64,000 nt of DNA, from NCBI GenBank assembly GCA_943373175.1, contig CALSBM010000005.1, positions 9,889-73,888 of the forward strand, written 5' to 3'. How positions within the stretch are numbered: the stretch's first letter is position 1; each line of letters opens with the position of its first letter. Shown here piece by piece: positions 26,811 to 58,862 of the stretch. The notes below the pieces were generated by a model. The model worked only from the letters and a program-made list of their open reading frames with translations, did no database searches and was not told where the DNA came from. The stretch is from Chitinophaga pinensis. Its GTDB lineage: Bacteria; Bacteroidota; Bacteroidia; UBA7662; JAIXUI01. Both the position numbers and the translations under genes were made by a program.

Positions 26811-27380
26811 TTGGCACAAAAATCCACAGAAAAAATCATTTTAGGAATAGACCCCGGAACTACTCACATGGGATATGCCCTGATTGAAGTAAAGGGGAAA
26901 GTGTGTAAAGTACTAACTCTTGGTGCATTAAACCTCAGTAAAGTCTCAGGTCAACCCAATAAACTTAAAAGAATCTTTGAGAAAGTTATCAATTTGATTG
27001 ACGAATATTTTCCAGATGAACTGGCGATAGAAGCCCCATTCTTCGGCAAAAATGTTCAATCCGTACTAAAATTAGGAAGAGCACAAGGAGTTGCCATGGC
27101 GGCAGCCCTATATCGGCAAATTCCATTAACAGAATATCAGCCAACCCAAGTAAAACTTGCCATAACGGGTAACGGTCAGGCAGCCAAAGAACAAGTTGCA
27201 GCTATGCTCGTTCATTTATTAGGGCAGAATTTAGATAAGGAAGGCTTAGATGCTACCGATGCTTTAGCAGTAGCCATGTGCCATTACCTTAAACAATCTC
27301 TACCACTTAACAGCAATAAAAACGTAAGCGGCAGTGGATGGAGTGCTTTTATCAAGGAAAATCCAAATAGGATTAAATAA
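26811..27380 (+). CDS. ruvC: Holliday junction resolvase RuvC
   Basis: ILGIDPG, AIEAPF, KLGRAQG, G.G.A.KEQV and DATDALAVA.CH. Confidence 0.97.
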   Translation: MAQKSTEKIILGIDPGTTHMGYALIEVKGKVCKVLTLGALNLSKVSGQPNKLKRIFEKVINLIDEYFPDELAIEAPFFGKNVQSVLKLGRAQGVAMAAALYRQIPLTEYQPTQVKLAITGNGQAAKEQVAAMLVHLLGQNLDKEGLDATDALAVAMCHYLKQSLPLNSNKNVSGSGWSAFIKENPNRIK

Positions 27381-27381
27381 C

Positions 27382-27774
27382 CTACAACTGCGAAGCTATA
27401 GCTTCCGCTATTGCTTTCATTTCATCGGTTGATACCTTCAATTTAGGTTTAGAGAAATCGATATCCGCCATGTTGTTCATTGGAATAAGATGAAGATGAG
27501 CATGAGGAACTTCGAATCCAATAACCGCTTGACCCACACGGCTACAGCCAGTCACTTTTTTAATTGATCGTGCTATTCGAGCAGCAAACACTTGCATGTC
27601 GCCTAACTTTTGATTTGAAAGATCAAAAAAATAGTCAATCTCTTCTTTAGGAACAACCAAAGTATGCCCTTTAGATAAAGGATTTACATCTAAAAATGCA
27701 TAGAAGTGCTCTGATTCAGCCACCGTATAGGAGGGAATTTCTCCATTAACAATTTTAGCAAAGATTGAAGCCAT
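27382..27774 (-). CDS. HIT family protein
   Basis: IF.KIV.GEIP, GHTLVVPK and histidine triad HAHLHLIP. Confidence 0.95.
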   Translation of the reverse strand: MASIFAKIVNGEIPSYTVAESEHFYAFLDVNPLSKGHTLVVPKEEIDYFFDLSNQKLGDMQVFAARIARSIKKVTGCSRVGQAVIGFEVPHAHLHLIPMNNMADIDFSKPKLKVSTDEMKAIAEAIASQL

Positions 27775-27777
27775 AAA

Positions 27778-28248
27778 TCAGGCAGTTATTTCCAAGATTT
27801 CAAACTTCATTTTACCGGATGGAACAGCAATTTCTGCTATTTCTCCAACCTTCCGGCCTAGGAAACCCTTACCGATTGGCGATCCGATTGATATTTTACC
27901 TAGTTTCAAATCAGCTTCCTTTTCAGAGACTAGGTGGTAACTCATCTCGACGTTGTTGAGTAAGTTTTTTACACGAACTTTGGTGTGTACAGTCACTTTT
28001 GAAGTATCTATTCTCGATTCGTCTAAAATTCTTGCATTAGCAAGCAGCGTCTCCAACTTTGAAATTTCCATTTCAAGTAGTCCTTGCGCTTCCTTGGCGG
28101 CATCATACTCTGCATTTTCCGACAAATCGCCTTTCTCGCGTGCTTCTTGAATTGCGCGAGCCATTTCAGACCGACCTTTAGTTCTTTTCTCTGAAAGCTC
28201 AGCCTTAAGTTTTTCGAGACCTTCCTTAGTGAAATATGATACGCTCAT
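27778..28248 (-). CDS. greA: Transcription elongation factor GreA
   Basis: AREKGDLSENAEYDAAKE and ISIGSPIGKG. Confidence 0.97.
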   Translation of the reverse strand: MSVSYFTKEGLEKLKAELSEKRTKGRSEMARAIQEAREKGDLSENAEYDAAKEAQGLLEMEISKLETLLANARILDESRIDTSKVTVHTKVRVKNLLNNVEMSYHLVSEKEADLKLGKISIGSPIGKGFLGRKVGEIAEIAVPSGKMKFEILEITA

Positions 28249-28262
28249 TTGTAAACTTGATT

Positions 28263-28297
28263 AAAAAACAAGGAACGCCCTTTTAAGGGGGCGTTCC
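28263..28297 (-). terminator. Rho-independent terminator of the TBDT-cargo-PorV operon
   Basis: GGAACGCCC...GGGCGTTCC hairpin followed by TTGTTTTTT on the minus strand. Confidence 0.8.
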
Positions 28298-28320: not shown

Positions 28321-29373
28321 TCAGAGGGTAATGCGTGCTCCGATACCGTAAGTTCCGTTAAATGGATCCGTGTGTCTCCAAGAGAAATCCAAACCAAATT
28401 TTCCACCTTTATCGTTGAAAGGAATATCAACTGAGAAACCCGCAGCATAACCTGTAAAAGCAGTAGAACGTGTTACTCGGTCATTAATTCCACTTTCGTA
28501 ATTATAACCGGTACGGAGGGAAAACCAAGTACCAAAATTATACTCAAGACCAAGGCCGAACTGATCGTTCGAAAAAGAATTGGATGTGAAGTTACCAGCT
28601 ACAACTAATTTCTGAAGTTTGGTCAATGGAATATCATACTGCATTCCAATATTCATCAACGAAGGAATTTCAAAACGTTCAGCCCGTTGAGACATGGTAA
28701 GACTTAAGCTTGAATTTTCGGGAGTTGCTCTTCCAGAAAGTCCATCGCCTGCAAATCGCATTGGAGTACCAACGTTACGGATTGCGATACCGAATTTCAA
28801 GCGATCATCTTTTCCAGTAACATATTGAATACCCGCATCGAAAGCTATTCCTTCCGAGCTAACCTCAGCCGTTGACTGAGAGATTAATCGGACGGTTACG
28901 CCACCATAAATACGTTTAGAGAATGTTCTGGCATAGGAAAGACCCATATTCACTAAGGAAGGAGAATAAAACCCAATTCCCCCGTCAGGGTTATTCATGT
29001 TGGTGATTTCAATATCACCCATGTTCATCGACATCAAACTAAAGCCAAGCACACTTGACTCGTTGATTCTTTGCGCAATACCAGCAGCATTCAAACTAAT
29101 ACCACTTCCTTCCAACCAGCTAGTTCTTACTAATTGAATTTCTGTGTTTTTAACGAAAGCTAAACCGGCAACATTGAAGCGCTCAGCCTCAATACCGCGG
29201 ATACCCGCAGTATTGACGCCGTACCATCCAGAACTTCTGGACCAGGGATTAATGAGGAGTTCCGTTGCGCCAGCCTGACCTACACGGTCAGGGTTACCTG
29301 CAAAGGAAGGCAACACCATCCCAGACAGAACTGCTCCAAAAAGGAGGTGTTTCAGATTTTTGATTGTCATCAT
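28321..29373 (-). CDS. PorV/PorQ (UPF0164/FadL-like) family outer-membrane beta-barrel
   Basis: Signal peptide; GQAGATELLINPWSRSSG resembles the PorV N-terminal motif; AFDAG.QY, FGIAIRN.G, GLGLEY and LR.GY; alternating beta C-terminus. Confidence 0.8.
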   Translation of the reverse strand: MMTIKNLKHLLFGAVLSGMVLPSFAGNPDRVGQAGATELLINPWSRSSGWYGVNTAGIRGIEAERFNVAGLAFVKNTEIQLVRTSWLEGSGISLNAAGIAQRINESSVLGFSLMSMNMGDIEITNMNNPDGGIGFYSPSLVNMGLSYARTFSKRIYGGVTVRLISQSTAEVSSEGIAFDAGIQYVTGKDDRLKFGIAIRNVGTPMRFAGDGLSGRATPENSSLSLTMSQRAERFEIPSLMNIGMQYDIPLTKLQKLVVAGNFTSNSFSNDQFGLGLEYNFGTWFSLRTGYNYESGINDRVTRSTAFTGYAAGFSVDIPFNDKGGKFGLDFSWRHTDPFNGTYGIGARITL

Positions 29374-29394
29374 AGGGCTGTCTGTGAGGGTTGA

Positions 29395-32300
29395 TTAGAA
29401 GGTGTCAAGGTCAATTGGTCTAACTACGCCAAACCATTTAACGGTTTTTTCACCAATACCTGGCGCGTTAATGTGGAAGATATAGGCTCCTGATGCAATA
29501 GGAACACGCTTACTATTAAGGAGATCCCAATCAACGCTGGTCGTCTCATCGTCTTTCGACAACACCCTAATCAATGCGCCGGATGATGTGAAAATAGATA
29601 CTGTACAGCGACGCGGAAGATTGGTGATTTTCACTCTATTATCAATCTGGCTGTTTTCATATCCAGAAACAGAGTAAAATGGGTTAGGAACAACACGAAT
29701 TATATTAAGCGCATTTACTGCTGTAGGCTTATTGAAAGTAACAGGTGCAAATGGCGTAGTATTGATTTCGTATAGTGGATTGTTATTATTTAAAGCAGGA
29801 GTTTGAGTTGCAAAAGAAGTGTATCGTTTTGCGACTCGTAGATTCACTGACAACTCAGTAGCTAACAATTGTTGACCAGGAGAAAGGAAAGGAATGCTCA
29901 CCCAAGCGACATTATTATAAAGTTGCTTAACAACAATAGAACCCTGTGTACCTGTGAAAGGTGCTCCTGCTCCTGCTCCTGCAAAGAGGAAACGCTTGAG
30001 GAATTCGCCTTCGTCATAACGAGACTTCATAACGTAGATATAATGTCTTCCGCCAACAGGCAAAGTCCCCGTTCTATTATCGAAAATGGTTGAAGTGGGA
30101 TTCCAAAGCATATCTCTTCCATTTGCATCTCTGAATTCAGAAGCTTCACCAAAACAAATATTTAATCTTTCTCCTGTTTCCATGTTGATAGCATACCCAG
30201 GAAACCATCCGCGGCCAATATCAGTAGGATCAAGAACTGTATCGCCATTAGCATTGACTGAACGTCCTAATCGCATTCGACCTTTAGTCTGTCCCCCTTC
30301 AGAATTTAGCGGATCGGCACCCATTTCAAGTACCCATCCACGAGTCCAATGTTGCTTATTAGGTGTAAAGACCAACTTTACTGAAGGTATATCACCTAGA
30401 GATAAATCTGTTGAGGAAAGCGGAGCAGGAAAACTCGGAAGAAGTGAGGTAATCGTTGGATCCGGAGAACTTCTTCGGACAAAACGCATTGCTGACCAAG
30501 CACCACTTAAGATACCGCTGAAGAAGTTGTTATCATCCCCACTTAATGCACCAGTACCCGCACCAGAAGGACCAGTTAAAATCCAGTCAAAATTGGGGCT
30601 ATCTTCTAAAAATTGTAACCACTGGTTTGTGTTGTCTCTGAATGAGAAATCCGATAACAATACACCATTACGGTCGTCATTGGGAGCCAATCCGGGATCT
30701 ACCGCATTGAGAACAGAAACAGAAATACCATAACTCTTAAAGGTACTGGTCATTTCGTACATGCCTACAACTTGCTCAGAATTAGTAGAAATAGTAGTAT
30801 CACTGAAAACAGTATCCTGATTTGCTGTTCCAGGATTAAGTATCAACATCCATCGAGAATTCTTACTAATGGTATCAATCGTAGGATTGCCTGGATTATA
30901 AATTCGCAGCCAATGCTTTCCTGGGATTACTAACTTTGGATCAACAATTTTAACGTTTACTGGGCCAAATCCAGGCTTATAAACTGGGAACAGTGCTCTG
31001 TTATCAGGACTCGCCAGAATTTCAGAAACCGTAGAGTCAGACAAATCGAGCAACTGATAACCATTACCTGTTCCTTCAACACGACGTACAATTGGAGCAT
31101 CGCCGTAAGTTGAATTGAGGATTAATCCATCCTTTTCAGGAGTATTAATATGTGGCACCCCGGTATAAACGGAAATGTTGTTACGGCCAGCAAAGAATGG
31201 TAATGCCTGTCCTTCATTGGTGATAGGGTTAAACGCCTCGTAATTGTTATAAGAGTAGGCAACCGCTAAATAGTAATACTTCTTGTGATTAATCAAAAGA
31301 TCGTTTCCAGTAGCAAACGCATCACGGTTGAGGCGGAAGGTGGTTTTAACACCTTGATCAGCACCGTCAACTTCGATACGAGGAATTGGTTTTTCCAAAT
31401 CCGGATCGATGTAATAGTTAATTAAACGGTTGATGCTGTCTTTAATATCGCACTGAAATATGATACGAGCACGACTTGCATCACGAAGTTCACCTGTGGA
31501 TACGTTTGAGCTTGCTAACTGATAAACGATGAAACCTTGGAATTTATAGCTAGAAGAATCAAGCTGTGCAGGAGTAGGATTGAAACCATAAATTGCTTTG
31601 ATGATAGGATCTACCTCCTTGTATTTCAGACCGAAGTTATTGGAAGAAGGCTTGTAAGTAAGCGTAAACACAAGCTGGCGATCCATTTCGGTAATGTTCA
31701 TGTCAGGAGCATCCGGGCCATTCAAAGTTTGGAAACAATTATCGAAGAGTGCCTGAGCCTTAGAGTCAGCGCGCAACAATTGGTTAAAAGAGCCTGTAGC
31801 ACCACCAGATGATGCCTTAGCCCAAACGATACCAATGGTGATATAGTTTACAGCACCAGGTTCCAATGTAAATGGTCCTCCTGATTGTACAAACCGGCGG
31901 TCAGCCGGAGCATTAGCAGCTGCACCTGTTCCTGGGAAAAGTTCTGTCCATGCAAAAGGTATTGTTCGAGGGTTTTGACCTGTTCCACCAATAGACCACC
32001 CATATTGAAAGTCTGAAGCACCAGGGAACATCATATCAGCCTCGAAAACAGTAGAACCAGTAGAACCAGGATATCCATTTCCTCCATAAACCATACGGTT
32101 ACCGTCTTTCCAGAAACCAGTCATGTAGTTATAAGCATGAACCGCTGTGGTTGGGTTACCAATTGGAGAAGCATCGTTATTGAAATAAAGAAACTTGGAC
32201 ATAATGCAACGTTCTGTTTTAGCAATTCCGTCACATATAAAAGTGTCTATTTCATCAACGCGAGCATCACGGTCATTATCGATTCCATCATTAGGATCAG

Positions 32301-33345
32301 AGAAAGGGCCTTCAAAGAAGTCGCACCCTACCGAAGGAGGGTTCTCGCCGTAACCTTGAATACCTTCATCGTTGTTATCTCCATTGTAGCAAATACCAAG
32401 ACCACGAGGAACATCGCAACCAACGAAGTCGTCAGCGGCATTTCCTAAATCCGGATCTACCCATTGAGCCATATAGCAAGAATCGAGACGAAGAGTAGAA
32501 CGATTAATGATAGTATGGAAATAGAACGTCATGTTATTTAGCTCATCGTTAGAGGCATAAGCAAAAGATTGTGTTTGAATTTCCATACCAATCTGTTGCG
32601 CCCCGGAACCGGAAACGTTTCCACGATCATTAATAACATTCCAGATAGACTGGTCACCATTAATACGAGGATAATCGCCTAATGCGGGCTCATAAACATT
32701 GGGGTCGCCACCAACATTAACAAAAGGAGCAAGATTAGGTGCTTGACCCAAGCTTAAGTCGCCATTAGCCGGCCAGTCGAGAAAGACCTGCGGGGGAACA
32801 TAACCCGGAACCAAGCTGGTTTGACCACCAGGAGCTATAATTGTGTTAGCACGGTGCGCTTCAACCTGAGCACGCTCTACTTTCCAGTGTTTGTCGAAAG
32901 AGAGACAGTTTGCTGAAGTAGTTGTTGCGTTGTTGGTATTTAACGGACCAGGCCAGTAGCCAATTCCTAATACTGTGCTTTGGCGGTAAGTTTGCGCAGC
33001 CACTCTTAAAGTACCTGAGGTAAAACCACCTACCCAAACCGCACCAGCGAACAGGGAGTTGAGACGAGGTTGAGATGGGTCAGTAGTTTTAGGAATTTCA
33101 TATCCAGCTAGACCGGAAGAACCTTGATCCCACCAATAATCACCGCCGGCTAAAATCCTAGCTCGAACATTGTTAACATCCAAAAAAATTCGAGAAGTCG
33201 CAGGGGCGCAATTAGCAGCACCACGCAATGCGGCAGCACCGGGAAGTGTTCGTGCAGAGGCCGATAAATCCTCGCGGGCAATAGCTTGGCTTAGAGCCAA
33301 CGTTGCCAACGCCAGGGATAAAAAGTATCGCTTCATGTATCGCAT
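29395..33345 (-). CDS. Large secreted protein with a T9SS-type C-terminal sorting domain
   Basis: Signal peptide, acidic DGIDNDRD loop, FN3-like segment, and C-terminal VVPNPF...IFT.SG.LIR.L....WD........SG.YI pattern. The start may be 33336. Confidence 0.8.
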   Translation of the reverse strand: MRYMKRYFLSLALATLALSQAIAREDLSASARTLPGAAALRGAANCAPATSRIFLDVNNVRARILAGGDYWWDQGSSGLAGYEIPKTTDPSQPRLNSLFAGAVWVGGFTSGTLRVAAQTYRQSTVLGIGYWPGPLNTNNATTTSANCLSFDKHWKVERAQVEAHRANTIIAPGGQTSLVPGYVPPQVFLDWPANGDLSLGQAPNLAPFVNVGGDPNVYEPALGDYPRINGDQSIWNVINDRGNVSGSGAQQIGMEIQTQSFAYASNDELNNMTFYFHTIINRSTLRLDSCYMAQWVDPDLGNAADDFVGCDVPRGLGICYNGDNNDEGIQGYGENPPSVGCDFFEGPFSDPNDGIDNDRDARVDEIDTFICDGIAKTERCIMSKFLYFNNDASPIGNPTTAVHAYNYMTGFWKDGNRMVYGGNGYPGSTGSTVFEADMMFPGASDFQYGWSIGGTGQNPRTIPFAWTELFPGTGAAANAPADRRFVQSGGPFTLEPGAVNYITIGIVWAKASSGGATGSFNQLLRADSKAQALFDNCFQTLNGPDAPDMNITEMDRQLVFTLTYKPSSNNFGLKYKEVDPIIKAIYGFNPTPAQLDSSSYKFQGFIVYQLASSNVSTGELRDASRARIIFQCDIKDSINRLINYYIDPDLEKPIPRIEVDGADQGVKTTFRLNRDAFATGNDLLINHKKYYYLAVAYSYNNYEAFNPITNEGQALPFFAGRNNISVYTGVPHINTPEKDGLILNSTYGDAPIVRRVEGTGNGYQLLDLSDSTVSEILASPDNRALFPVYKPGFGPVNVKIVDPKLVIPGKHWLRIYNPGNPTIDTISKNSRWMLILNPGTANQDTVFSDTTISTNSEQVVGMYEMTSTFKSYGISVSVLNAVDPGLAPNDDRNGVLLSDFSFRDNTNQWLQFLEDSPNFDWILTGPSGAGTGALSGDDNNFFSGILSGAWSAMRFVRRSSPDPTITSLLPSFPAPLSSTDLSLGDIPSVKLVFTPNKQHWTRGWVLEMGADPLNSEGGQTKGRMRLGRSVNANGDTVLDPTDIGRGWFPGYAINMETGERLNICFGEASEFRDANGRDMLWNPTSTIFDNRTGTLPVGGRHYIYVMKSRYDEGEFLKRFLFAGAGAGAPFTGTQGSIVVKQLYNNVAWVSIPFLSPGQQLLATELSVNLRVAKRYTSFATQTPALNNNNPLYEINTTPFAPVTFNKPTAVNALNIIRVVPNPFYSVSGYENSQIDNRVKITNLPRRCTVSIFTSSGALIRVLSKDDETTSVDWDLLNSKRVPIASGAYIFHINAPGIGEKTVKWFGVVRPIDLDTF

Positions 33346-33356
33346 GTGTTATTTTA

Positions 33357-36300
33357 TCAGAAAGTGAATCTTACGCCAATACGTGCTCTGCGAGGAAGTG
33401 CGAAGTTGTCTGGATTCTGCATGGAGACCGTATAAAGGTCAATGAAAGAAGCAGGATCCAAAGTTCCGTTAAGCTGCTGAGCTCCGAGGTTAGAAGTGAG
33501 GAATCCGTCGTCCATTGGGTCACCAGTATAACGATAAACACCAAGAACGTTACGTAAATCAAACAGGTTGAGGACTTGAAGGTAAACCGTGACAGTAGCC
33601 ATTTTCGGGCGATCTGGGGTGCCTTTTCCAATTTTAAAGTCAATGTCTTTATCAACGCGGAGGTTTACTCTAAGCTGCCAAGGCAAACGAGAACCGTTTA
33701 GAGTACCTTTCAACGTTGTACGGCCATCAATACCTCCGGCAACATCACCATCAGGAGTTACGAATGTTTGACGTGAGAATGGAGTTCCAGAAACAGCGTT
33801 GGCAACAAAGTTGAACCCAACATTCTGAAGAATTGGAAATCCAAAAGGACGTGGGCCGTTATAGTCTTTTCCTTTACCAAAACGGAAGTCGAGAGTACCC
33901 ACTAAACGGTGGCGTGCATCGAAGTTAAGAGGCAAAGGTGTACGAAGGTTATCGATACCAGCCTGAATGATGTTAGCCGCTTGCTCAGGAGCAGAACCGG
34001 TACCATCTGCAAATTGCAAGGTGTAAGAACCGTTGAAACGGATATTTCCGGAACGACGTAAGTCATAAGATATAGTTAACCCTTTTACAGTTCCGAAATC
34101 GATGTTTCCATAAGTACGATAGTCAACAGGAAACGCAAATGGACGGTTAATGATCTGAATCATGTTACGCAACTCGCGATAGAATGCAGAAATAGTTATT
34201 GCTGAACGTTCGTTCAACTTTTGCTTAAAGCCAAGTTCGTAATCGATGGTTTGCTCAGGAAGTAGGGATGGATTGTTGATGGTACCGCCAACATTTTGCA
34301 GATAGAAAAAGTCTGTTGGGTCAAAACGAAGGAATCCGGAAGGGCGCTGAGTTAGCACGTCGTAGTGAGCGAAGAATTGTGCTTCGTCAGAAATAGGGAA
34401 TGAGAACGCAACACGCGGCATGAAGTTAATCTGCGGTGTATAGGTAGTGAACGCATTTGCTCCGACGCTAATTTGCCGAGGATCTTCGAGGTAAGGAGTA
34501 ATACGGCCAGCAGCAGCAGCATTTGCGAGTGCTGATGGGTTACGAATTTCCTGACCACTAGCGTTGAACCAAGTTTGACCGCTGCGGTAGCCAAGAATAG
34601 CTGGTGTAGCAGCATTCGCGTCATTAACGTAAACTACATAATCGCTACCAATATTTCCGGGATGACGACCACCGTTAGCAGTATTCAAAGCTCCAGAAAC
34701 TTGACCGACCGTTTTAGCAGGGAAAAGAAGGAATGGATCTTTAAGTACTGGCTGGTTTGCATCAAAGCGGTCAACACGCAATCCTACACGGAAGATAAGG
34801 TCATCGAAGTCAAATTTGTCTTCGATAAATCCTGCTAAATAGATAGGCGAGAATGGAGCAATGTTACGGTTGGTTGTGTCCGTAAAGAAGTCTAATTGGC
34901 CGGGTCGGCTGGATAAACGATCTCCTTTATAGTCATAACCAAAGTAAGAAACAAAGCTTTGGCCTTCATTCAACAATTCATTCGGACTGAAGAAATTCAC
35001 TTTCAATGCGTTAGGATCCAATTTGTCGATTTGAACAATGTCAAGACCCTGAACGTTGAGGCCAAGAGAACTACGAAGATTTCTATCAAACGTGGACTGG
35101 TTTGCCCCTACATAAAGACGGTTGAAATAAATGGTATCGTTGTACAAACCAAATTCATCTCGTGCGTAAATAGGATTTGAAAGATCAAGTTCGTTTAGGT
35201 GACGATTCATTAAACCACGGGCATGTCCCCAAAGACCGATACCAGAAGCGAAAGGATTCAAGCTATAACCCCTGTCTATGCGTTGGTCATATTCGAAACC
35301 GAACTTAATCGCGTGACTTTTAATATCCGCAGAGGCAACTCCACTTACACGAAACATGTCGTTGTTAGAGTAAGAGTAACCACCAGTCTGACGGCCACTG
35401 TTCCACCAAATTCCATAAACAGAGTTAAGGCGTAGTCCATTAATGTTTCCACCTAACTGCTGAATATCATTGAAGTTAGTTAACCGCTGATCACCCAATA
35501 AGCTAAAGAACTGACGATTGAAGGCTGTAAGCAAAGGATCAACATCCTTGGGAGTATAGGTCACCAAAGTGTCGCGGAAGCCGGACATGATGTTGGTGTT
35601 TAACTGAAAGATTCCATCAACAGTAGCAGAATCCTGTCTGAAGGTTCTTTCTTGAAGAACATCAAACTCACCCATATACCCATAACTAAACGCGTTACGG
35701 CCTAACCTGTCGTCCTCGTTACGGCCTGTCGTGTTGGTATAGTCAAATTGAAGGGTATAAAATGCGTTTTTAATCGTGGAGTTATTGGTTGATGCACCAC
35801 TCTCAATTTTGGAGTTGAAACTCTGCTTAATCCGACCATAAATACGAAACGTTTGGTTTTCGAAGGAAGGGTTGTTAGCAGAGTTAAACAAACTGTACGC
35901 ACGGACGTAACTTCTTCCCCATGTTCGGTCATAGTTACCACCAAGTGTAAACGTAAAGTCGTTAGTAGGCTGGAAGTCGATTTTACCAGAGAACGATAAA
36001 CGGTTGGAAGTTACATTCGGACGTACATCATCAAGGAACATATCGCTTCTACGAACGAACTGTGCATTTTGAACAAAGCCAGTTCCGAGTGGGGAACGAC
36101 GAAGTGGATTTGCCTGTAAATCTGCCAGTTTATTGGGATTGATTTGCCAAACTCCAATAGCAGAAGGATCATTATCTAACTGAGTTTCCCACTCACCTGA
36201 GAGGAAGTAACCTAAAACAGCACGTTCATTTTCTTTGCCTTTATTTTTAACCCAAAGCGGTCCTGTAATATTCAAAGCACCGAGGTTATAACCATAAGGC

Positions 36301-37034
36301 TCTAAAAAAGCAGAACTCAGAATCTCAGCTCCGCCACTGAAGTTACGTGAAGGCCCTCGGGTAGTTACGTTAATTACACCACCGGTAACGTCACCATATT
36401 GAGAAGGAACACCACCGGTAATAACCGTAGTTTGCTCAATAGCAGAGTTTGGAAGGTTTGTAGAACCACGCACCCGGATACCGTCCACAAAATATTCCGT
36501 AGCATCGGAACGCCCTCCACGCATGTTGATTGCGCCACCCTCATCTGACTGAAACACCCCTGCAGAAACCGCCGCAATAGAGTTTACATCGCGGGTTGCC
36601 ATTTGAGCAATCTCTGCACGAGTAACCGTCTGGCCAGTCGAAGTTTCATCCGGCCGTATTAACGGCACCTCATAAATGATAGTTGTTTCCTTGATGTTGA
36701 CAGCGTTCGAAGTGAGGTAGATATCCACGAAAGTACTCCTATCGGAATTCACCTCTACGCCTTTGATGTTCTTTGGCGCATAACCAAGATACTTGACTTT
36801 CAAGTCGTATGTTCCCGGAGGAAGAGAACTAAATTTATAGCGTCCATCGGCATCGGTGGTTGCCCCTCCTTTGATGGCGCCCTCGCGCTCCAATATCACA
36901 TTAGCAAATGCGATAACCTCTTTCTTACCCTCACCGAGCACACGTCCTTGAAGAACGCCGGTACCTGACTGAGCCCAGGCAACGATTAGAGTAAAGAGGA
37001 ACAGGAGCACACTTAAGTAAAGTTTTTTCAACAT
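33357..37034 (-). CDS. TonB-dependent receptor with an N-terminal carboxypeptidase-regulatory-like domain
   Basis: Signal peptide AWA-Q; TTDADGRY...LPPGTY.LKV.YLGY; plug RGGRS....YFVDG; MPRVAFSFPI, PEQTIDYELG; terminal RIGVRFTF beta-signal. Confidence 0.92.
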   Translation of the reverse strand: MLKKLYLSVLLFLFTLIVAWAQSGTGVLQGRVLGEGKKEVIAFANVILEREGAIKGGATTDADGRYKFSSLPPGTYDLKVKYLGYAPKNIKGVEVNSDRSTFVDIYLTSNAVNIKETTIIYEVPLIRPDETSTGQTVTRAEIAQMATRDVNSIAAVSAGVFQSDEGGAINMRGGRSDATEYFVDGIRVRGSTNLPNSAIEQTTVITGGVPSQYGDVTGGVINVTTRGPSRNFSGGAEILSSAFLEPYGYNLGALNITGPLWVKNKGKENERAVLGYFLSGEWETQLDNDPSAIGVWQINPNKLADLQANPLRRSPLGTGFVQNAQFVRRSDMFLDDVRPNVTSNRLSFSGKIDFQPTNDFTFTLGGNYDRTWGRSYVRAYSLFNSANNPSFENQTFRIYGRIKQSFNSKIESGASTNNSTIKNAFYTLQFDYTNTTGRNEDDRLGRNAFSYGYMGEFDVLQERTFRQDSATVDGIFQLNTNIMSGFRDTLVTYTPKDVDPLLTAFNRQFFSLLGDQRLTNFNDIQQLGGNINGLRLNSVYGIWWNSGRQTGGYSYSNNDMFRVSGVASADIKSHAIKFGFEYDQRIDRGYSLNPFASGIGLWGHARGLMNRHLNELDLSNPIYARDEFGLYNDTIYFNRLYVGANQSTFDRNLRSSLGLNVQGLDIVQIDKLDPNALKVNFFSPNELLNEGQSFVSYFGYDYKGDRLSSRPGQLDFFTDTTNRNIAPFSPIYLAGFIEDKFDFDDLIFRVGLRVDRFDANQPVLKDPFLLFPAKTVGQVSGALNTANGGRHPGNIGSDYVVYVNDANAATPAILGYRSGQTWFNASGQEIRNPSALANAAAAGRITPYLEDPRQISVGANAFTTYTPQINFMPRVAFSFPISDEAQFFAHYDVLTQRPSGFLRFDPTDFFYLQNVGGTINNPSLLPEQTIDYELGFKQKLNERSAITISAFYRELRNMIQIINRPFAFPVDYRTYGNIDFGTVKGLTISYDLRRSGNIRFNGSYTLQFADGTGSAPEQAANIIQAGIDNLRTPLPLNFDARHRLVGTLDFRFGKGKDYNGPRPFGFPILQNVGFNFVANAVSGTPFSRQTFVTPDGDVAGGIDGRTTLKGTLNGSRLPWQLRVNLRVDKDIDFKIGKGTPDRPKMATVTVYLQVLNLFDLRNVLGVYRYTGDPMDDGFLTSNLGAQQLNGTLDPASFIDLYTVSMQNPDNFALPRRARIGVRFTF

Positions 37035-37277
37035 AGGCGGTAGTGTGTTACAGTGTTCAAATGATCTTTAAAAATGTTCTTTTTGCCTTATTTGGCTTAA
37101 GAATGTGCAACATAGCACCAAACAAGGGAAGAAACAAGAGTGGCTTAACGCCTCTTTAACACTTCTTAAGTAATAAATTGGTTTTTCTAAATCAATAAGA
37201 GCCTTTTCTGATGTTCAGAGCTCATTTTCCTGACAAAAGCCTGACCTTTTTCCCTTAAATAATCTCACTTAAGGCGC

Positions 37278-55418: not shown

Positions 55419-58400
55419 TCAGTTCGATAATACTGATAGATTTTCAGCGAAATACATTCTGACTTCTCCTTTCCCTTTTACTGGGAAAGTTCCACGGTAT
55501 TCGCATTGAAACTGCAATTTCACCCTCACGAACGTGGTTTCGCTGATGTTGACTTTGCCCGCACTTCCACTGCTTTCTAACCTGCTGGCGGTGTTAACCG
55601 TATCGCCCCAGATGTCGTAGGCGTATTTCTTCACACCAACAATTCCGGCAACTACGGAGCCCGTGTGAACGCCTATTCGAACCTGAAACTTACTCTCGTT
55701 TTTTGCGATGTAATCCCGAATGGCAAGGGCTGCTTTTACAGTATTAACTGCGTGTTCCGGATGCTCAATTGGCAGTCCACCGACGGCCATATACGCATCC
55801 CCAATAGTCTTGATTTTCTCTAATCCAAATTGTTCAATAATAGAATCGAAGGCAGAAAAGCTGCGGTGTATTTCTTCCACCAATTCTCTTGGCGCCATTT
55901 GGGAGGCTATACCAGTAAAGCCGACAAAGTCGGTAAACAGTACAGTGACTTCGTTGTATTGCCTTGCTTGTGCTTTCCCGGTTTGCTTTAGCTCTTCAGC
56001 CACTTCTTCAGGAAGAATATTCAGTAATAAATCGTCGCTTTTTTTCTTTTCCGCTACTACCTCTGCAGTCCTTGCTAAGACCGTTTGCTCTAACTTCTCT
56101 TTGTCTAACCTTAGGTTTCGTTCACGCCATTGAATGAAGAGCCGAAGTAAAAACAGAAAGAAAAGGGCATAGAGCGTGAAAGCCCACCAAGATCTCCACC
56201 AAGGTGGAAGTACCTGAAAAGAGAAGGTTACCGGCTCACTCCATATTCCCTCCGGACTTCTTGCCTTCACTTTAAACCGATAAAATCCTTCGTGAATGTT
56301 ACCAAAAGTGGCGGTTCCAGTTTCTGTAACCGGCGACCAACCTCTATCGTAACCTTCCAACATATACTGATAGCGAACCATTCGGTTTCTTCCGGTTTCT
56401 ATAGCGACATAATCAAAGGACACATTATTGTGTTGATAGGGAAGTACAAGCCGAGTTGGAAGCGGATAAAAACGCGTAATACTGTCGAATTGGATGCCTG
56501 TAAAGAGCCTCTTTAAACTGTCTTGTAAGGGTCGCTCCAGACTTCGCCCATAGGTAATAATGGATTGTTGAGCAAGGGTGAGACTGTCGGTTTGTAAGCC
56601 TCCCAATGAATACCAGCACGTTTGGTCGTTGTTGATTTTCAAAGCCTGAATCACTACTTGCGGTGCTTTTACAGAAGGGCGAACAGTTTTTAGGTCAATT
56701 CTGGTTATGCCGTTACTTCCGTGTCCAATCCAAATCATACCACTGCGATCCACCCAAACAGCTCCATTATTGTATCCGGCATTTACGTCTCTGACCGGAT
56801 ATCCGGTAAACTGATTGAAGATGACAAGTCCTTCAAGATTGCCGGTAAGCTGCTCTTTGTTTTGGTGCACCATTTTCTGAGCCTGCTTTTTCGGAATAAC
56901 CCAAATTCCAAAGTTGGTTCCTAACAACATATTGCCATCATGGTCTTCCTTTACTGAGGCGATGAACTGGTCGGGAAGCCCCTGATTTTTGGTGTAGTTC
57001 ACGAAAAAAGCCTTGTTTTCTCTAGGATGTTGGACAGAAACCTGGTTGGATAATCCCAAAACAGATTCGGCAGGTAGGATAGAGAGACCGCCACCAGTAC
57101 CAACCCAAAGATTCCCTTTGCTATCGGAATGAATGCTTTTAATGAAGTTGCTGATAAGGCCTTGTTTGGTGGTGAAGTTGAGGAAATGCTGGCCATCGTA
57201 TCGAATAACTCCACAGCCATTGGTGCCAAGCCATAGATTGCCCATTGCATCTTCTTCTATAGACCAAATGGCGTCGTGCGGAAGTCCTTGTCGAGTTGTG
57301 TAGGTTGAAAAAAGTTTTCCATCAAACCGGGTAAGTCCACCGCCGTCGGTGCCAATCCAAATAACGCCCTTAGCGTCAAGGAATAAACTGCGAATGGGGT
57401 TGCCAGAAAGTCCATGTTGCCGAGTATAACGGATGAGCTTAGTTCCATCAAACCGGCTCAATACCCCAGATTCACTGCCGATCCAGGTATTGCCGGAAGA
57501 ATCGGTTGCCAGACATCCAATCGACTTATGAGGTATTCCGTCTTTTGTACGCAAAGAGTGAAAAGTGCGCCCATCGAATTTGACCACTCCGCTGTCTTGA
57601 GTGCCGAGCCAAAGCGTACCGTTGCGGCTTTCGGCCATACATAGCACGGTATTGTCGGGCAAGCCTTGGTTGGAAGTGAGGGTAATGAAAGCGCCACCTC
57701 GATACAGACTTACGCCGCCGCCTTCGGTTCCGAACCAAATATTGCCGACTTTATCTTCTGAGATGCTCACGATAGCCCCGCTCGCCAATCCCTGATTTGT
57801 ATTGAAATTGGTGAACCATTGCCCGTTCCAACGGCTTACTCCACCGCCACCGGTGCCCATCCATACGTTTCCGTTACGGTCTGCGGCAATGCTCCAGATT
57901 TCCGCGAAAGGAAGGCCGTTTTGGGTGGTCCACGTCTGAATAGATTGCCCTTTAATTCGAGTAACGCCGCCTTTTGTTCCTGCCCAAAGGTTTCCGGAAA
58001 GGTCGGTGGTGAGACTAAGTACTCGGTTATCAGCAAGTCCGTCGAGGGTAGTGAAGGTTCTAAACGATGTTCCATTGAACCGACTAAGGCCGGCTCCTTC
58101 GGTTCCGCACCATAAATATCCTTGCTTATCAAAAGCAAGGCTTCGAACACTGTTTCCGGCTAATCCATTGGGAGTAGAGGAGTAATTGGTGAACTTCTTT
58201 CCATCAAACCTACTAATACCATTATTGTATGTGCCCATCCAGAGGTTGCCCTGGCGGTCTGGTTCAATGCACATTACATCGTTTCCTGCAAGGCCGTCCT
58301 CGGTAGTAAAACTGCGAAAGGAATGGCCATTGTAGCAACTAACACCTCCGCCCCCAGTTCCTATCCAGATATTGCCTTCAGCATCTTCTGCCAGGCAAAG

Positions 58401-58862
58401 CACTAAATTATTGGCAAGGCCAATTGTAGTAGTGAACGTAGTGAACGATTTTCCATCGAAGCGGGATACTCCACCACCTTGAGTCCCCATCCAAAGATGG
58501 CCACGGCTGTCGCACAAGAGGGATTTGCCATAGCCTAAAGCATCGAGTGCTAAGCCATCGTCTGAATCAAAGGTGGTAAACAACCCTACTCCGGCAGCCG
58601 ATTGGTCAGGCAAAGTAGAGCCATCAGAAAGGAAGTTGACTTTCGGTAAAGGTGTTGCTTCCAACCATGCTGAAACCGTAGATGAAGCACGCGCTTTGCT
58701 GAAAAAAATCTCAGGTGTTACCTGTATCGGCTTCGGTAGTTCATAATTAGCCGTTGCCAAGGCTTGCGATTGTTCAACAGACGAATCAGCTTGTTTTCTA
58801 CAAGCTGAAACCATCATCAACACAACCAATAGTGGAAGTAGAATGAAATTATGGCTAACCAT
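55419..58862 (-). CDS. Reg_prop beta-propeller + Y_Y_Y sensor fused to a class III adenylate cyclase
   Basis: Lipobox VSAC; many D..GN.W.GT.GGG.SR.DG repeats; YQY.LEGYD..W and PPWW + TM; cyclase motifs FTDFVGFT, KIKTIGDAYM and YDIWGDTVNTASR.ES. Confidence 0.93.
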   Translation of the reverse strand: MVSHNFILLPLLVVLMMVSACRKQADSSVEQSQALATANYELPKPIQVTPEIFFSKARASSTVSAWLEATPLPKVNFLSDGSTLPDQSAAGVGLFTTFDSDDGLALDALGYGKSLLCDSRGHLWMGTQGGGVSRFDGKSFTTFTTTIGLANNLVLCLAEDAEGNIWIGTGGGGVSCYNGHSFRSFTTEDGLAGNDVMCIEPDRQGNLWMGTYNNGISRFDGKKFTNYSSTPNGLAGNSVRSLAFDKQGYLWCGTEGAGLSRFNGTSFRTFTTLDGLADNRVLSLTTDLSGNLWAGTKGGVTRIKGQSIQTWTTQNGLPFAEIWSIAADRNGNVWMGTGGGGVSRWNGQWFTNFNTNQGLASGAIVSISEDKVGNIWFGTEGGGVSLYRGGAFITLTSNQGLPDNTVLCMAESRNGTLWLGTQDSGVVKFDGRTFHSLRTKDGIPHKSIGCLATDSSGNTWIGSESGVLSRFDGTKLIRYTRQHGLSGNPIRSLFLDAKGVIWIGTDGGGLTRFDGKLFSTYTTRQGLPHDAIWSIEEDAMGNLWLGTNGCGVIRYDGQHFLNFTTKQGLISNFIKSIHSDSKGNLWVGTGGGLSILPAESVLGLSNQVSVQHPRENKAFFVNYTKNQGLPDQFIASVKEDHDGNMLLGTNFGIWVIPKKQAQKMVHQNKEQLTGNLEGLVIFNQFTGYPVRDVNAGYNNGAVWVDRSGMIWIGHGSNGITRIDLKTVRPSVKAPQVVIQALKINNDQTCWYSLGGLQTDSLTLAQQSIITYGRSLERPLQDSLKRLFTGIQFDSITRFYPLPTRLVLPYQHNNVSFDYVAIETGRNRMVRYQYMLEGYDRGWSPVTETGTATFGNIHEGFYRFKVKARSPEGIWSEPVTFSFQVLPPWWRSWWAFTLYALFFLFLLRLFIQWRERNLRLDKEKLEQTVLARTAEVVAEKKKSDDLLLNILPEEVAEELKQTGKAQARQYNEVTVLFTDFVGFTGIASQMAPRELVEEIHRSFSAFDSIIEQFGLEKIKTIGDAYMAVGGLPIEHPEHAVNTVKAALAIRDYIAKNESKFQVRIGVHTGSVVAGIVGVKKYAYDIWGDTVNTASRLESSGSAGKVNISETTFVRVKLQFQCEYRGTFPVKGKGEVRMYFAENLSVLSN

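Follow-up and report, generated by a model that had tools for sequence, protein, structure and literature searches.

The window analysed here is the whole stretch of 64,000 nucleotides, and it holds on its minus strand three close-packed genes that encode, from 5' to 3', a TonB-dependent transporter, a large protein that we refer to as the cargo, and a PorV-like barrel. The list of open reading frames returns them at 33357..37034 (1225 aa), 29395..33345 (1316 aa) and 28321..29373 (350 aa), with 11 bp between the transporter and cargo genes and 21 bp between the cargo and barrel genes, exactly as the earlier note on this DNA had described them. The features to which we refer throughout are the following.

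37035..37277, minus strand: 5' intergenic region of the transporter gene, 243 bp, the presumed promoter region
33357..37034, minus strand: TonB-dependent transporter of 1225 aa with an Oar-type layout (Pfam)
29395..33345, minus strand: whole cargo gene, 1316 aa, with a Sec signal peptide, no lipobox and no Pfam family
31726..33210, minus strand: cargo residues 46-540, a beta-supersandwich of the galactose-mutarotase or GH-N-domain type (AlphaFold and VIA-align)
31126..31725, minus strand: cargo residues 541-740, an FN3-like beta-sandwich with an insertion (structure model)
29761..31125, minus strand: cargo residues 741-1195, confidently modelled beta-rich domains without a fold match
29398..29724, minus strand: cargo residues 1208-1316, a divergent, PorZ/PorU-like T9SS C-terminal domain (CTD; match to the PorZ model)
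28321..29373, minus strand: barrel of the PorV/PorQ family, 350 aa (NF033709)
28272..28297, minus strand: intrinsic-terminator-like hairpin of 9 pairs, 7 of them G-C, with a T-run tail, closing the three-gene unit

The hairpin lies 3' of the barrel gene, between it and greA, where a terminator had indeed been proposed. Upstream of the transporter gene a sigma-70 scan, which is not suited to Bacteroidota promoters, performed no better than on shuffled sequence, and Rfam returned no credible riboswitch or leader between positions 27000 and 38500 of the window at E <= 1, the region 37035..37277 included, nor any at gathering score in eight related loci. No public RNA run is listed that could show co-transcription of the trio. 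A plus-strand reading frame at 30086-30733, which overlaps the cargo gene and was matched in only one of 99 loci, was treated as spurious. The ten flanking genes encode GreA, a HIT protein, RuvC, an LPG-synthase-like protein, a GT2 glycosyltransferase, a SpoIIE phosphatase, one unassigned protein, a patatin, RecA and an alpha/beta hydrolase; the reported lack of a SusD or a carbohydrate-active enzyme nearby holds to the extent that neither SusD nor a glycoside hydrolase is found among these ten, and across the genome the SusD family PF07980 has its sole match on contig C7.

The transporter carries a signal peptide, a CarboxypepD_reg extension (residues 28-118; E 4e-17), a plug (residues 132-220; E 8.5e-8) and a large barrel (E 9e-13) that ends in ...RFTF. 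Its scores exceed the cut-offs for TonB-dependent proteins in general, both for the plug (PF07715, 33.1 bits against 23.9) and for the barrel (PF00593, 49.3 against 27), and the presence of PF13620 at residues 28-108 (62.8 bits) ahead of plug and barrel gives it the Oar-type architecture, a term that describes the layout and carries no implication of an Oar-like export function. The plug motifs are conserved across 41 aligned homologues, and so is a stretch V.YKVPLI (IIYEVPLI in the window, at residues ~118-125), located after the N-terminal extension and ahead of the plug, which may be read as a candidate TonB box. The SusC type, with which this protein had been compared, does not fit it: the SusC/RagA models of NCBIfam give no match at E <= 0.01, the only matches being three generic ones below threshold, and the layout is of the Oar type instead. 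It follows that the missing SusD is in itself no anomaly. At the same E-value limit neither the NCBIfam models of T9SS components nor the sequences of the PDB yield a relative of the transporter.

The cargo belongs to a family that is large and practically nameless. At least 1798 clusters of homologues were recovered at E <= 1e-3 among 8000 candidates scored, and the cluster names that we saw are either "hypothetical" or derived from the T9SS tail alone; a search of the ESM Atlas led to unnamed clusters only, and a profile of the cargo matched no PDB sequence. Its domains become recognizable at the level of predicted structure. Residues 46-540 are modelled by AlphaFold as a beta-supersandwich (pLDDT 85.2, pTM 0.71) that VIA-align superposes on 9ju0 with Z 19.0 and an rmsd of 3.0 over 247 of about 490 residues, and on the N-domains of GH15, GH94, GH65 and GH116 with Z 15-18.7; invariant Asp-rich insertions and invariant D, N and G columns mark this domain in the alignment. 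The predicted fold is typical of sugar-binding domains, although the fold alone shows no function. A Foldseek search with a 1191-residue model of the cargo had returned GH enzymes at TM scores of only 0.11-0.21, and the VIA-align result was preferred. Residues 541-740 (pLDDT 89.1, pTM 0.88) are predicted to resemble 8iyk_J (Z 8.3, rmsd 2.2, 96 residues aligned) and many further FN3 domains at Z 6-7.8. For the C-terminal half Foldseek found no PDB match at E <= 0.001, and the VIA-align lists were filled by FN3 matches to residues 541-740, so that residues 741-1195 were barely probed and no new fold is claimed for them. This last region holds a highly conserved block around GWFPGYAI..ETGERLN..FGE.S...WNP...GG.H and numerous E, D, H, S and R residues that are invariant, and could, judging from these, be catalytic.

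The tail of the cargo deserves separate consideration, since the claim that this is a T9SS-type cargo with a CTD stands in part only. The tail matches the C-terminal part of the NCBIfam PorZ model and no other portion of it (positions 671-757 of 757, E 2.4e-4), and in this genome positions 670-757 of the model are matched by PorZ, the cargo (23.1 bits) and PorU (20.5 bits) alone; among 20 homologues of the cargo, this CTD segment of PorZ is matched by 16 and the type-A model TIGR04183 by 12. The window cargo, in contrast, matches neither TIGR04183 nor PF18962 at E <= 0.01, and its tail, scanned alone, finds only FlgD_ig at E 0.088. Elsewhere in the genome 87 other reading frames pass the ordinary type-A CTD model and CTD matches number 88 in total, the trio cargo being absent from both counts. 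Because the window tail falls short of the type-A thresholds, its export by the T9SS is something that we infer. The tail, which ends in ...DLDTF in the window, is nonetheless the most conserved region of the cargo, with a majority-residue frequency of 0.74 and no gaps against 0.65, 0.58, 0.48 and 0.51 in the other regions. In the portions of PMC10202324 consulted, PorZ and PorU are reported to remain attached through their CTDs to PorQ and PorV, respectively; taken with the conservation and the lack of a type-A match, the likeness to these two proteins makes the cargo tail look retained rather than cleaved.

The barrel falls within the PorV/PorQ family (NF033709, 132.9 bits against a cut-off of 90, positions 3-318 of 326) and lies below the equivalog cut-offs of PorV (NF033710, 70 of 250 bits), PorQ (NF033711, 70.6 of 220) and PorV2 (NF052325, 38.1 of 325), while a search of PDB sequences returns Flavobacterium johnsoniae PorV alone, at E 0.014. 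In a quick tree search all 19 trio barrels form one clade (SH-aLRT 100), apart from PorV (99), PorQ (99) and PorV2 (100). The genome possesses a complete T9SS of its own, including SprA (2588 bits) and PorZ: its canonical PorV (505 bits) adjoins PorU (1315.7 bits) on contig C15, PorQ (337 bits) is found on C74, and a PorV2-like gene on C27 scores 323.4 bits against the cut-off of 325. Barrels of the PorV family number five in this genome, that of the trio included. The trio barrel is consequently not the canonical PorV of the genome, and its separate clade and the location of the canonical barrels elsewhere suggest that it is private to its cargo, as had been supposed. That the cargo tail binds this barrel is likewise predicted: three runs of complex prediction gave ipSAE values of 0.93, 0.92 and 0.93, the best of three controls giving 0.00, with contact agreement of at least 83% and partner pLDDT of at least 78, a mark reached by 58 of 80 solved complexes versus 2 of 110 mismatched pairs. 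The structures of PorV-cargo and attachment complexes are already solved, and therefore the high score may reflect likeness to them; it says nothing, moreover, of a preference for the trio barrel over canonical PorV.

The three genes travel together well beyond this genome. Their order is kept in 75 of the best 80 related loci, in 17 of 20 loci from genomes of other classes and in all 14 further barrel loci from other classes, an arrangement far beyond chance that bears out the expected synteny. The five exceptions are extra copies of the cargo gene, and in each of the genomes concerned a single barrel gene of the trio type lies elsewhere, with another cargo gene directly ahead of it (one of these genomes, G403, is unpublished; without it the count is four of four). 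In G363 a single barrel gene is flanked by two cargo genes. One trio subtype has a SurA-like PPIase gene upstream. When the distance matrices of the four parts (transporter, passenger, tail and barrel) are compared across 39 complete trios, they correlate with r between 0.77 and 0.90, none of 2000 permutations being as high, although these correlations partly reflect shared phylogeny; in G041, which has two trios, one trio has its nearest relatives in loci L154 and L156 for each of its four parts, and the other has them in L143, again for all four. The parts thus diverge together, and trios are therefore inherited as units.

The distribution of the module is patchy. In a sample of 100 genomes of the same class, the same 16 hold both cargo and barrel, one copy each, and the module was not found in the other 84, of which 82 are SprA-positive; other classes hold several trios per genome with diverged passengers. 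The barrel is present in 191 of the 312 SprA-positive genomes sampled and in none of 89 SprA-less ones, a contrast confounded by the fact that 87 of the 89 belong to one family, and it is this distribution that makes a dependence of the module on the T9SS plausible. SusD is absent from all five multi-trio genomes examined, whereas a strict complementarity between trio and SusD had to be discarded, as one family has both in eight of eight genomes.

Taken together, these findings partly support the interpretation from which the analysis set out: the trio is syntenic elsewhere, the barrel is not the canonical PorV, the tail is predicted to bind it and our literature searches found no prior description, but the transporter is not of the SusC type and the tail of the window cargo stays below the type-A CTD thresholds. 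The reading that we favor, with chances that we regard as about even, is that the three genes form one outer-membrane module in which a T9SS-exported cargo, docked on the barrel, feeds the transporter. The cargo would cross the inner membrane via Sec and would be exported by the T9SS; unlike ordinary type-A cargo it would be neither cleaved nor attached to lipopolysaccharide, and would keep its CTD, which would attach non-covalently to the barrel on its extracellular side in the manner of PorZ on PorQ and PorU on PorV. Held in this way at the cell surface beside the transporter, with which it would be in contact, the cargo might use its supersandwich and FN3-like domains to catch a large substrate, perhaps a glycan, and pass it on for TonB-energised import rather than export, filling the role that the lipoproteins SusD, BtuG and RagB play at other Bacteroidota transporters. 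It is gene order and co-divergence that suggest the cargo as a lid or capture subunit of the transporter. An uptake role for the module is plausible because an intact plug, preceded by a conserved motif, and a barrel are present in the transporter, because the cargo gene occupies the position that susD takes after susC, because the predicted fold of the cargo N-domain is typical of sugar-binding domains, and because other classes have the module in multiple copies with diverged passengers, as uptake loci do.

Not all of the evidence, however, points to a single machine of three parts. The barrel could simply tether a T9SS protein that acts alone as a surface enzyme or adhesin, with the transporter importing its products or an unrelated nutrient and no complex being formed, a possibility that we consider unlikely without dismissing it: the contact between tail and barrel is the sole one predicted, the invariant residues of region 741-1195, together with the lack of a fold match there, make catalysis conceivable, and both the cargo copies without an adjacent transporter (five of 80 loci) and the two cargo genes around one barrel gene in G363 would suit such an arrangement. 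It accounts less readily for the order and adjacency of transporter and cargo genes kept across classes, for the 11-bp gap that separates them in the window, or for the transporter-passenger distance correlation of r 0.90, which is as strong as that of any pair of parts.

It is decidedly improbable, on the other hand, that the locus encodes an envelope or T9SS accessory of a housekeeping rather than a nutritional kind, whereby the transporter would be a PorF-like secretion or biogenesis part acting alongside a barrel of PorV type, and the cargo would have a structural role at the surface. The conserved neighbors greA, HIT and ruvC (in 63, 61 and 39 of 99 loci, respectively) speak for it, as do the single copy in the class of the window and the SurA-like PPIase gene of one subtype; indeed, single copy number, absence from 84 of 100 genomes and the greA and HIT context look more like a housekeeping locus than a substrate-specific one. 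Yet a module that was not found in those 82 SprA-positive genomes is no general component of the T9SS, other classes hold it in several copies whose passengers have diverged, no NCBIfam model of a T9SS component matches the transporter at E <= 0.01, and PG0534 is described as plugless, whereas the transporter carries a plug together with an N-terminal extension. We hold it to be very improbable, finally, that the Oar-type barrel exports the big protein with the power of TonB, independently of SprA, and that the PorV-like barrel receives it. Such a route would agree with the succession of CarboxypepD_reg extension, plug and barrel, which is the Oar layout as defined in the sections of PMC6434023 drawn upon here, and with a tail in the window that is no standard type-A CTD; it sits poorly with a tail that is similar to the CTDs of the T9SS proteins PorZ and PorU and whose homologues match the type-A model in 12 of 20 cases, and with the absence of the barrel from all 89 SprA-less genomes, 87 of one family though they are, and the passage of a folded protein of 1316 aa through a 22-strand barrel is without precedent except for the genetic result on Oar.

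The literature that we searched holds no description of the trio, in keeping with what had been anticipated. Returning to the module that we favor, it is possible, albeit somewhat doubtful, that the trio belongs to a large undescribed class of uptake machines in which a variable T9SS passenger sits by its retained tail in a private PorV-like socket beside the transporter, a third general design next to the bare TonB-dependent transporter and the SusCD type. Such a class would be widespread in T9SS-bearing Bacteroidota, and with at least five copies in lineages poor in SusD or devoid of it, it may replace there the SusCD loci of Bacteroidia. If this is true, the T9SS would be linked directly to TonB-dependent import, barrels of the PorV family would act as the private sockets of individual surface proteins far more widely than in the case of PorZ-PorQ, and we would learn how SusD-poor Bacteroidota, mostly uncultured or environmental, may provide their transporters with capture subunits. 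Since the clusters of cargo homologues, at least 1798 of them, are unnamed or named after the tail, one defined experiment in a carrier that can be cultivated could give a first function to very many genes.

The components of the trio have counterparts in several known systems, none of which unites them in the same way. In the type-B pair SprB-SprF, as described in the parts of PMC9143113 at hand, a dedicated barrel gene adjoins that of its T9SS cargo, as in the trio; the trio barrel, however, is of the FadL-like PorV/PorQ family and not PorP/SprF, the tail is type-A-related, and type-B CTD and PorP/SprF models of NCBIfam and Pfam match neither cargo nor barrel at E <= 0.01. The TonB-dependent Oar is needed for PopC secretion in Myxococcus xanthus, an organism without a T9SS according to the same excerpts of PMC6434023; it shares its layout with the trio transporter, the likeness being one of layout, and unlike the trio it has no PorV-like partner and no CTD cargo. 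The BamG-BamH pair of the Bacteroidota BAM complex again comprises a 14-strand FadL-family barrel with a surface protein held at its extracellular side, but BamH, unlike the trio cargo, is a lipoprotein, and BamG is bound to BamA (PMC12611786 and PMC12578637, both in part); the likeness to the trio is one of description. Moreover, the trio barrel occurs in only 16 of 100 genomes of its class and is therefore no universal part of the BAM complex.

Closest to the predicted tether are PorZ-PorQ and PorU-PorV of Porphyromonas gingivalis, in which, as set out in the consulted portions of PMC10202324, a T9SS-exported protein stays with its uncleaved CTD on a barrel of the PorV/PorQ family. The trio barrel is of that family, the cargo tail matches the CTD segment of PorZ, and binding between the two is predicted. 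Unlike these pairs, the trio has a barrel that forms a clade apart from PorV, PorQ and PorV2, a passenger that resembles PorZ and PorU in its tail alone and is modelled as a supersandwich with an FN3-like domain and not as the beta-propellers of PorZ, and an operon shared with a TonB-dependent transporter; PorU, PorV, PorQ and PorZ proper are encoded elsewhere in the genome.

SusC/SusD, RagAB and BtuB-BtuG are complexes in which a Bacteroidota transporter works with a surface partner. As in SusC/SusD, the transporter gene of the trio is directly followed by that of a large surface partner, and the system is modular, with varied partners and, in some lineages, several copies per genome. It departs from SusC/SusD in that the transporter lies outside the SusC/RagA group and in that the partner, which has no lipobox and hence is no lipoprotein, has neither the fold nor the family of SusD and seems to reach the surface by way of the T9SS and to be tethered there through a third protein.

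The three minus-strand genes lie exactly where the earlier note had placed them, their positions agreeing with the ORF list, and follow one another at spacings of 11 bp and then 21 bp, with an intergenic stretch of 243 bp on the 5' side of the transporter gene:

33357-37034, minus strand: TonB-dependent transporter (ORF, 1225 aa)
29395-33345, minus strand: cargo (ORF, 1316 aa)
28321-29373, minus strand: trio barrel (ORF, 350 aa)
28297-28272, minus strand: strong terminator-like hairpin (9 pairs, 7 G-C, T run) between the barrel gene and greA

The ten genes flanking the trio in the window are housekeeping or envelope genes (greA, a HIT protein, ruvC, an LPG-synthase-like protein, a GT2 glycosyltransferase, a SpoIIE phosphatase, one unassigned protein, a patatin, recA and an alpha/beta hydrolase), and none of them encodes SusD or a glycoside hydrolase, as had been noted from the sequence alone. 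On the downstream side, long-range synteny links the trio with greA, the HIT gene and ruvC (window 26811-28248), which recur across classes in 63, 61 and 39 of 99 loci, respectively; no upstream neighbour recurs in the same 99 loci. No riboswitch or other Rfam element hinting at a substrate was found at the trio locus or related loci, and no RNA runs were listed for trio expression. A 215-aa ORF running antisense within the cargo gene (30086-30733, plus strand) is matched in only one of the 99 related loci and is probably spurious.

A scan of species-representative genomes returned 599 matching stretches, 591 of them encoding a relative, and 75 of the best 80 loci retained carry transporter, cargo and barrel in this order on a single strand, so that the trio is indeed syntenic elsewhere, as the earlier note had supposed. 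The other five loci carry an additional cargo copy; in each of these genomes exactly one trio-type barrel lies elsewhere, with another cargo copy immediately before it (leaving out G403, an unpublished genome, makes this four of four). By NCBI label the 80 loci belong to Bacteroidia (28), Flavobacteriia (29), Sphingobacteriia (1) and unclassified Bacteroidota (20); the remaining two, both complete trios, come from bins labelled Sphingomonadales (VHAX01000003.1, 52% cargo identity) and Bifidobacterium (CAZHSC010000022.1, 38%), which are probably mislabelled or contaminated rather than witnesses of gene transfer.

In a phylum sample of 400 genomes plus the window's own, the cargo is present in 99 of 401 (E <= 1e-20) and the barrel profile in 191 (E <= 1e-50), a figure that may include non-trio barrels, matches weaker than about 1e-60 having been sampled once only. 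Among 100 genomes of the same class as the window's, cargo and barrel occur in the identical 16, with one barrel apiece; in other classes 174 of 300 genomes hold the barrel, many of them in several copies, up to at least five. Cargo-centred loci from these other classes contain the trio in 17 of 20 cases, the other three being one cut by a contig end, one with two cargo genes only and one weak match, and all 14 barrel-centred loci consist of a transporter, a protein with a trio-type tail and the barrel. Thirteen of them have a middle protein of 1100-1260 aa; in the remaining one (L150:5969-9511) a 687-aa ORF takes its place, and about 1.5 kb devoid of long ORFs separate this from the barrel gene, perhaps owing to a frameshift, to decay into a pseudogene or to faulty assembly. 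The passenger, i.e. the cargo minus its tail, is strongly diverged in five of the 14, little matching besides the tail. Five passengers scanned against Pfam find no family.

Two variants of the arrangement deserve mention. In a diverged subtype from other classes, the trio is preceded by a SurA-like PPIase of 556-593 aa, which may constitute a fourth, chaperone component of that subtype; ORFs of equal size are found in loci L151, L153 and L159.

L152:8967-10634, minus strand: SurA-like PPIase with Rotamase domains
L163:9339-11117, minus strand: SurA-like PPIase with Rotamase domains

In another genome (G363:C15:28031-37393) two full-length cargo genes surround one trio barrel gene, so that a single barrel may serve two cargo proteins, and such sharing may also occur in the five genomes with an orphan cargo copy.

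The trio barrel belongs to the PorV/PorQ family (132.9 bits against a cut-off of 90) and falls far under the equivalog cut-offs of PorV, PorQ and PorV2. It is one of five PorV-family genes in the window's genome (3.07 Mb, 118 contigs, 99.4% complete), the others being:

C15:21695-26806: canonical PorV (505 bits), with the adjoining PorU (1315.7 bits)
C74:5674-6741: PorQ (337 bits)
C27:15719-16774: PorV2-like gene (323.4 bits against 325), beside tyrS
C6:51548-52540: unclassified PorV-family barrel (330 aa), beside a rhamnosyltransferase-like gene

A quick maximum-likelihood search over 39 PorV-family proteins, drawn from the window's genome, from five further genomes and from 13 named loci, gathers all 19 trio barrels into one clade (SH-aLRT 100), apart from PorV (99), PorQ (99) and PorV2 (100); together with the porU-linked PorV on C15, this upholds the earlier proposal that the barrel is separate from canonical PorV. 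The unclassified barrel on C6, which might be a candidate BamG type, forms no single clade with its relatives from two other genomes. The same genome encodes SprA (2588 bits) and PorZ (543 bits, contig C3) and matches the type-A CTD model 88 times (87 above cut-off), a very large T9SS secretome for 3.07 Mb. A 1157-aa ORF in the window (57081-58532, minus strand) matches the propeller-like middle part of the PorZ model (positions 439-664) three times (43.1, 30.7 and 23.6 bits) and is a PorZ-like repeat protein distinct from the PorZ on C3.

The cargo begins with what reads as a Sec signal peptide without lipobox. It matches no Pfam family, and its sole NCBIfam match is between the last ~100 residues and the C-terminal part of PorZ (model E 2.4e-4). 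Its homologues fill at least 1798 protein clusters at E <= 0.001 among 8000 candidates scored, the best 120 aligning almost end to end with 38-90% identity; cluster names are solely 'hypothetical' or derived from the T9SS tail, and an ESM Atlas search gave unnamed clusters only. An AlphaFold model of residues 24-1214 (pLDDT 85.2, pTM 0.71) places an N-terminal beta-supersandwich at residues ~46-540, alike to the non-catalytic N-domains of GH15, GH94, GH65 and GH116 enzymes as well as to galactose mutarotases and the YidC periplasmic domain (top match 9ju0, Z 19.0, rmsd 3.0, 247 residues aligned); its Asp-rich insertions, invariant in the homologue alignment, read as candidate calcium-binding loops. 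In a second model of residues 541-1214 (pLDDT 89.1, pTM 0.88), residues 541-740 form an FN3-like domain (Z 8.3, rmsd 2.2, 96 aligned), and residues 741-1195, a part scarcely probed by the fold searches, gave no fold match.

The tail of the window's cargo, a divergent CTD, lies below type-A thresholds; 12 of 20 aligned homologues match TIGR04183 and 16 of 20 the CTD part of the PorZ model, whose positions 670-757 are matched in the window's genome by PorZ, the trio cargo and PorU only. According to a passage of a review (PMC10202324), PorZ and PorU retain their CTDs and remain bound to PorQ and PorV, respectively. The tail is also the best-conserved cargo region, gap-free and with a majority-residue frequency of 0.74 compared with 0.48-0.65 in passenger regions, a pattern that would suit a lasting interface more than a signal to be discarded. 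When barrel residues 26-350 (54-row alignment) and tail residues 1200-1316 (20-row alignment) were modelled together, three runs gave ipSAE values of 0.93, 0.92 and 0.93 (best of three controls 0.00), with at least 83% of contacts in agreement and partner pLDDT of at least 78; the calibration mark was reached by 58 of 80 solved complexes and by 2 of 110 mismatched pairs. Because PorV-cargo and attachment complexes have already been solved, the score may reflect likeness to them; what it predicts is tail-barrel binding as such, with no preference over canonical PorV implied.

The mechanism we favour, at even odds, is a three-part surface module, whereby the T9SS would export the cargo, its retained tail would plug into the private barrel, and the tethered protein would act as capture subunit of the adjacent transporter. 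The analysis establishes the gene anatomy, the orthology, the synteny and the co-divergence of the parts, and binding of the tail to the barrel is a prediction; retention of the tail, contact with the transporter, the direction of transport and the substrate are what we infer here. An anchor pair of cargo and barrel, beside a transporter that works separately, is rather unlikely in our estimation; the predicted docking concerns these two proteins, and the transporter diverges along with them. Matrices of pairwise distances computed over 39 complete trios for transporter, passenger, tail and barrel agree with one another (r 0.77-0.90, values inflated by shared phylogeny; 0 of 2000 permutations as high). 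More telling are paralogues within one genome: G041 holds two trios, one of which has trios L154 and L156 of other genomes as nearest relatives for each of its four parts, and the second L143, again for each of the four. The unit has been copied and passed on as one piece, an argument for cognate sets.

The transporter comprises a CarboxypepD_reg N-terminal extension followed by a plug and a TonB-dependent barrel (Pfam), reaches no SusC/RagA model or other curated NCBIfam family and has no sequence relative in the PDB. Since this layout is the Oar architecture, dominant in Bacteroidetes according to a passage of PMC6434023, a missing SusD neighbour is not anomalous in itself; export of the Oar-like kind is the least probable reading we considered. 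Slightly ahead of it, and still improbable, stands a PorF-like accessory machine of the envelope or the T9SS (compare passages of PMC8564354). SprA occurs in 312 of the 401 genomes, and none of the 89 SprA-less genomes is among the 191 with the barrel, a link that rests largely on one lineage because a single family accounts for 87 of the 89; all 87 of its genomes (1.8-2.8 Mb) lack SprA, SusD, trio barrel and cargo. Of the 401 genomes, 218 contain SusD (PF07980), which is absent from all five multi-trio genomes examined; within the same class the trio occurs in 4 of 6 SusD-less against 12 of 94 SusD-bearing genomes, counts that are descriptive only, related genomes not being independent. Trio and SusD are not strict alternatives, for in one family all 8 genomes hold both.

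Searches of the full-text literature found no description of the trio. The three-part surface module joins two known principles, the pairing of a transporter with a partner at the surface and the docking of a CTD on a PorV-like barrel, in a combination that this literature does not describe: in position and role the cargo would resemble SusD-type partners, and the docking of its tail on the trio barrel would resemble that of PorZ on PorQ.
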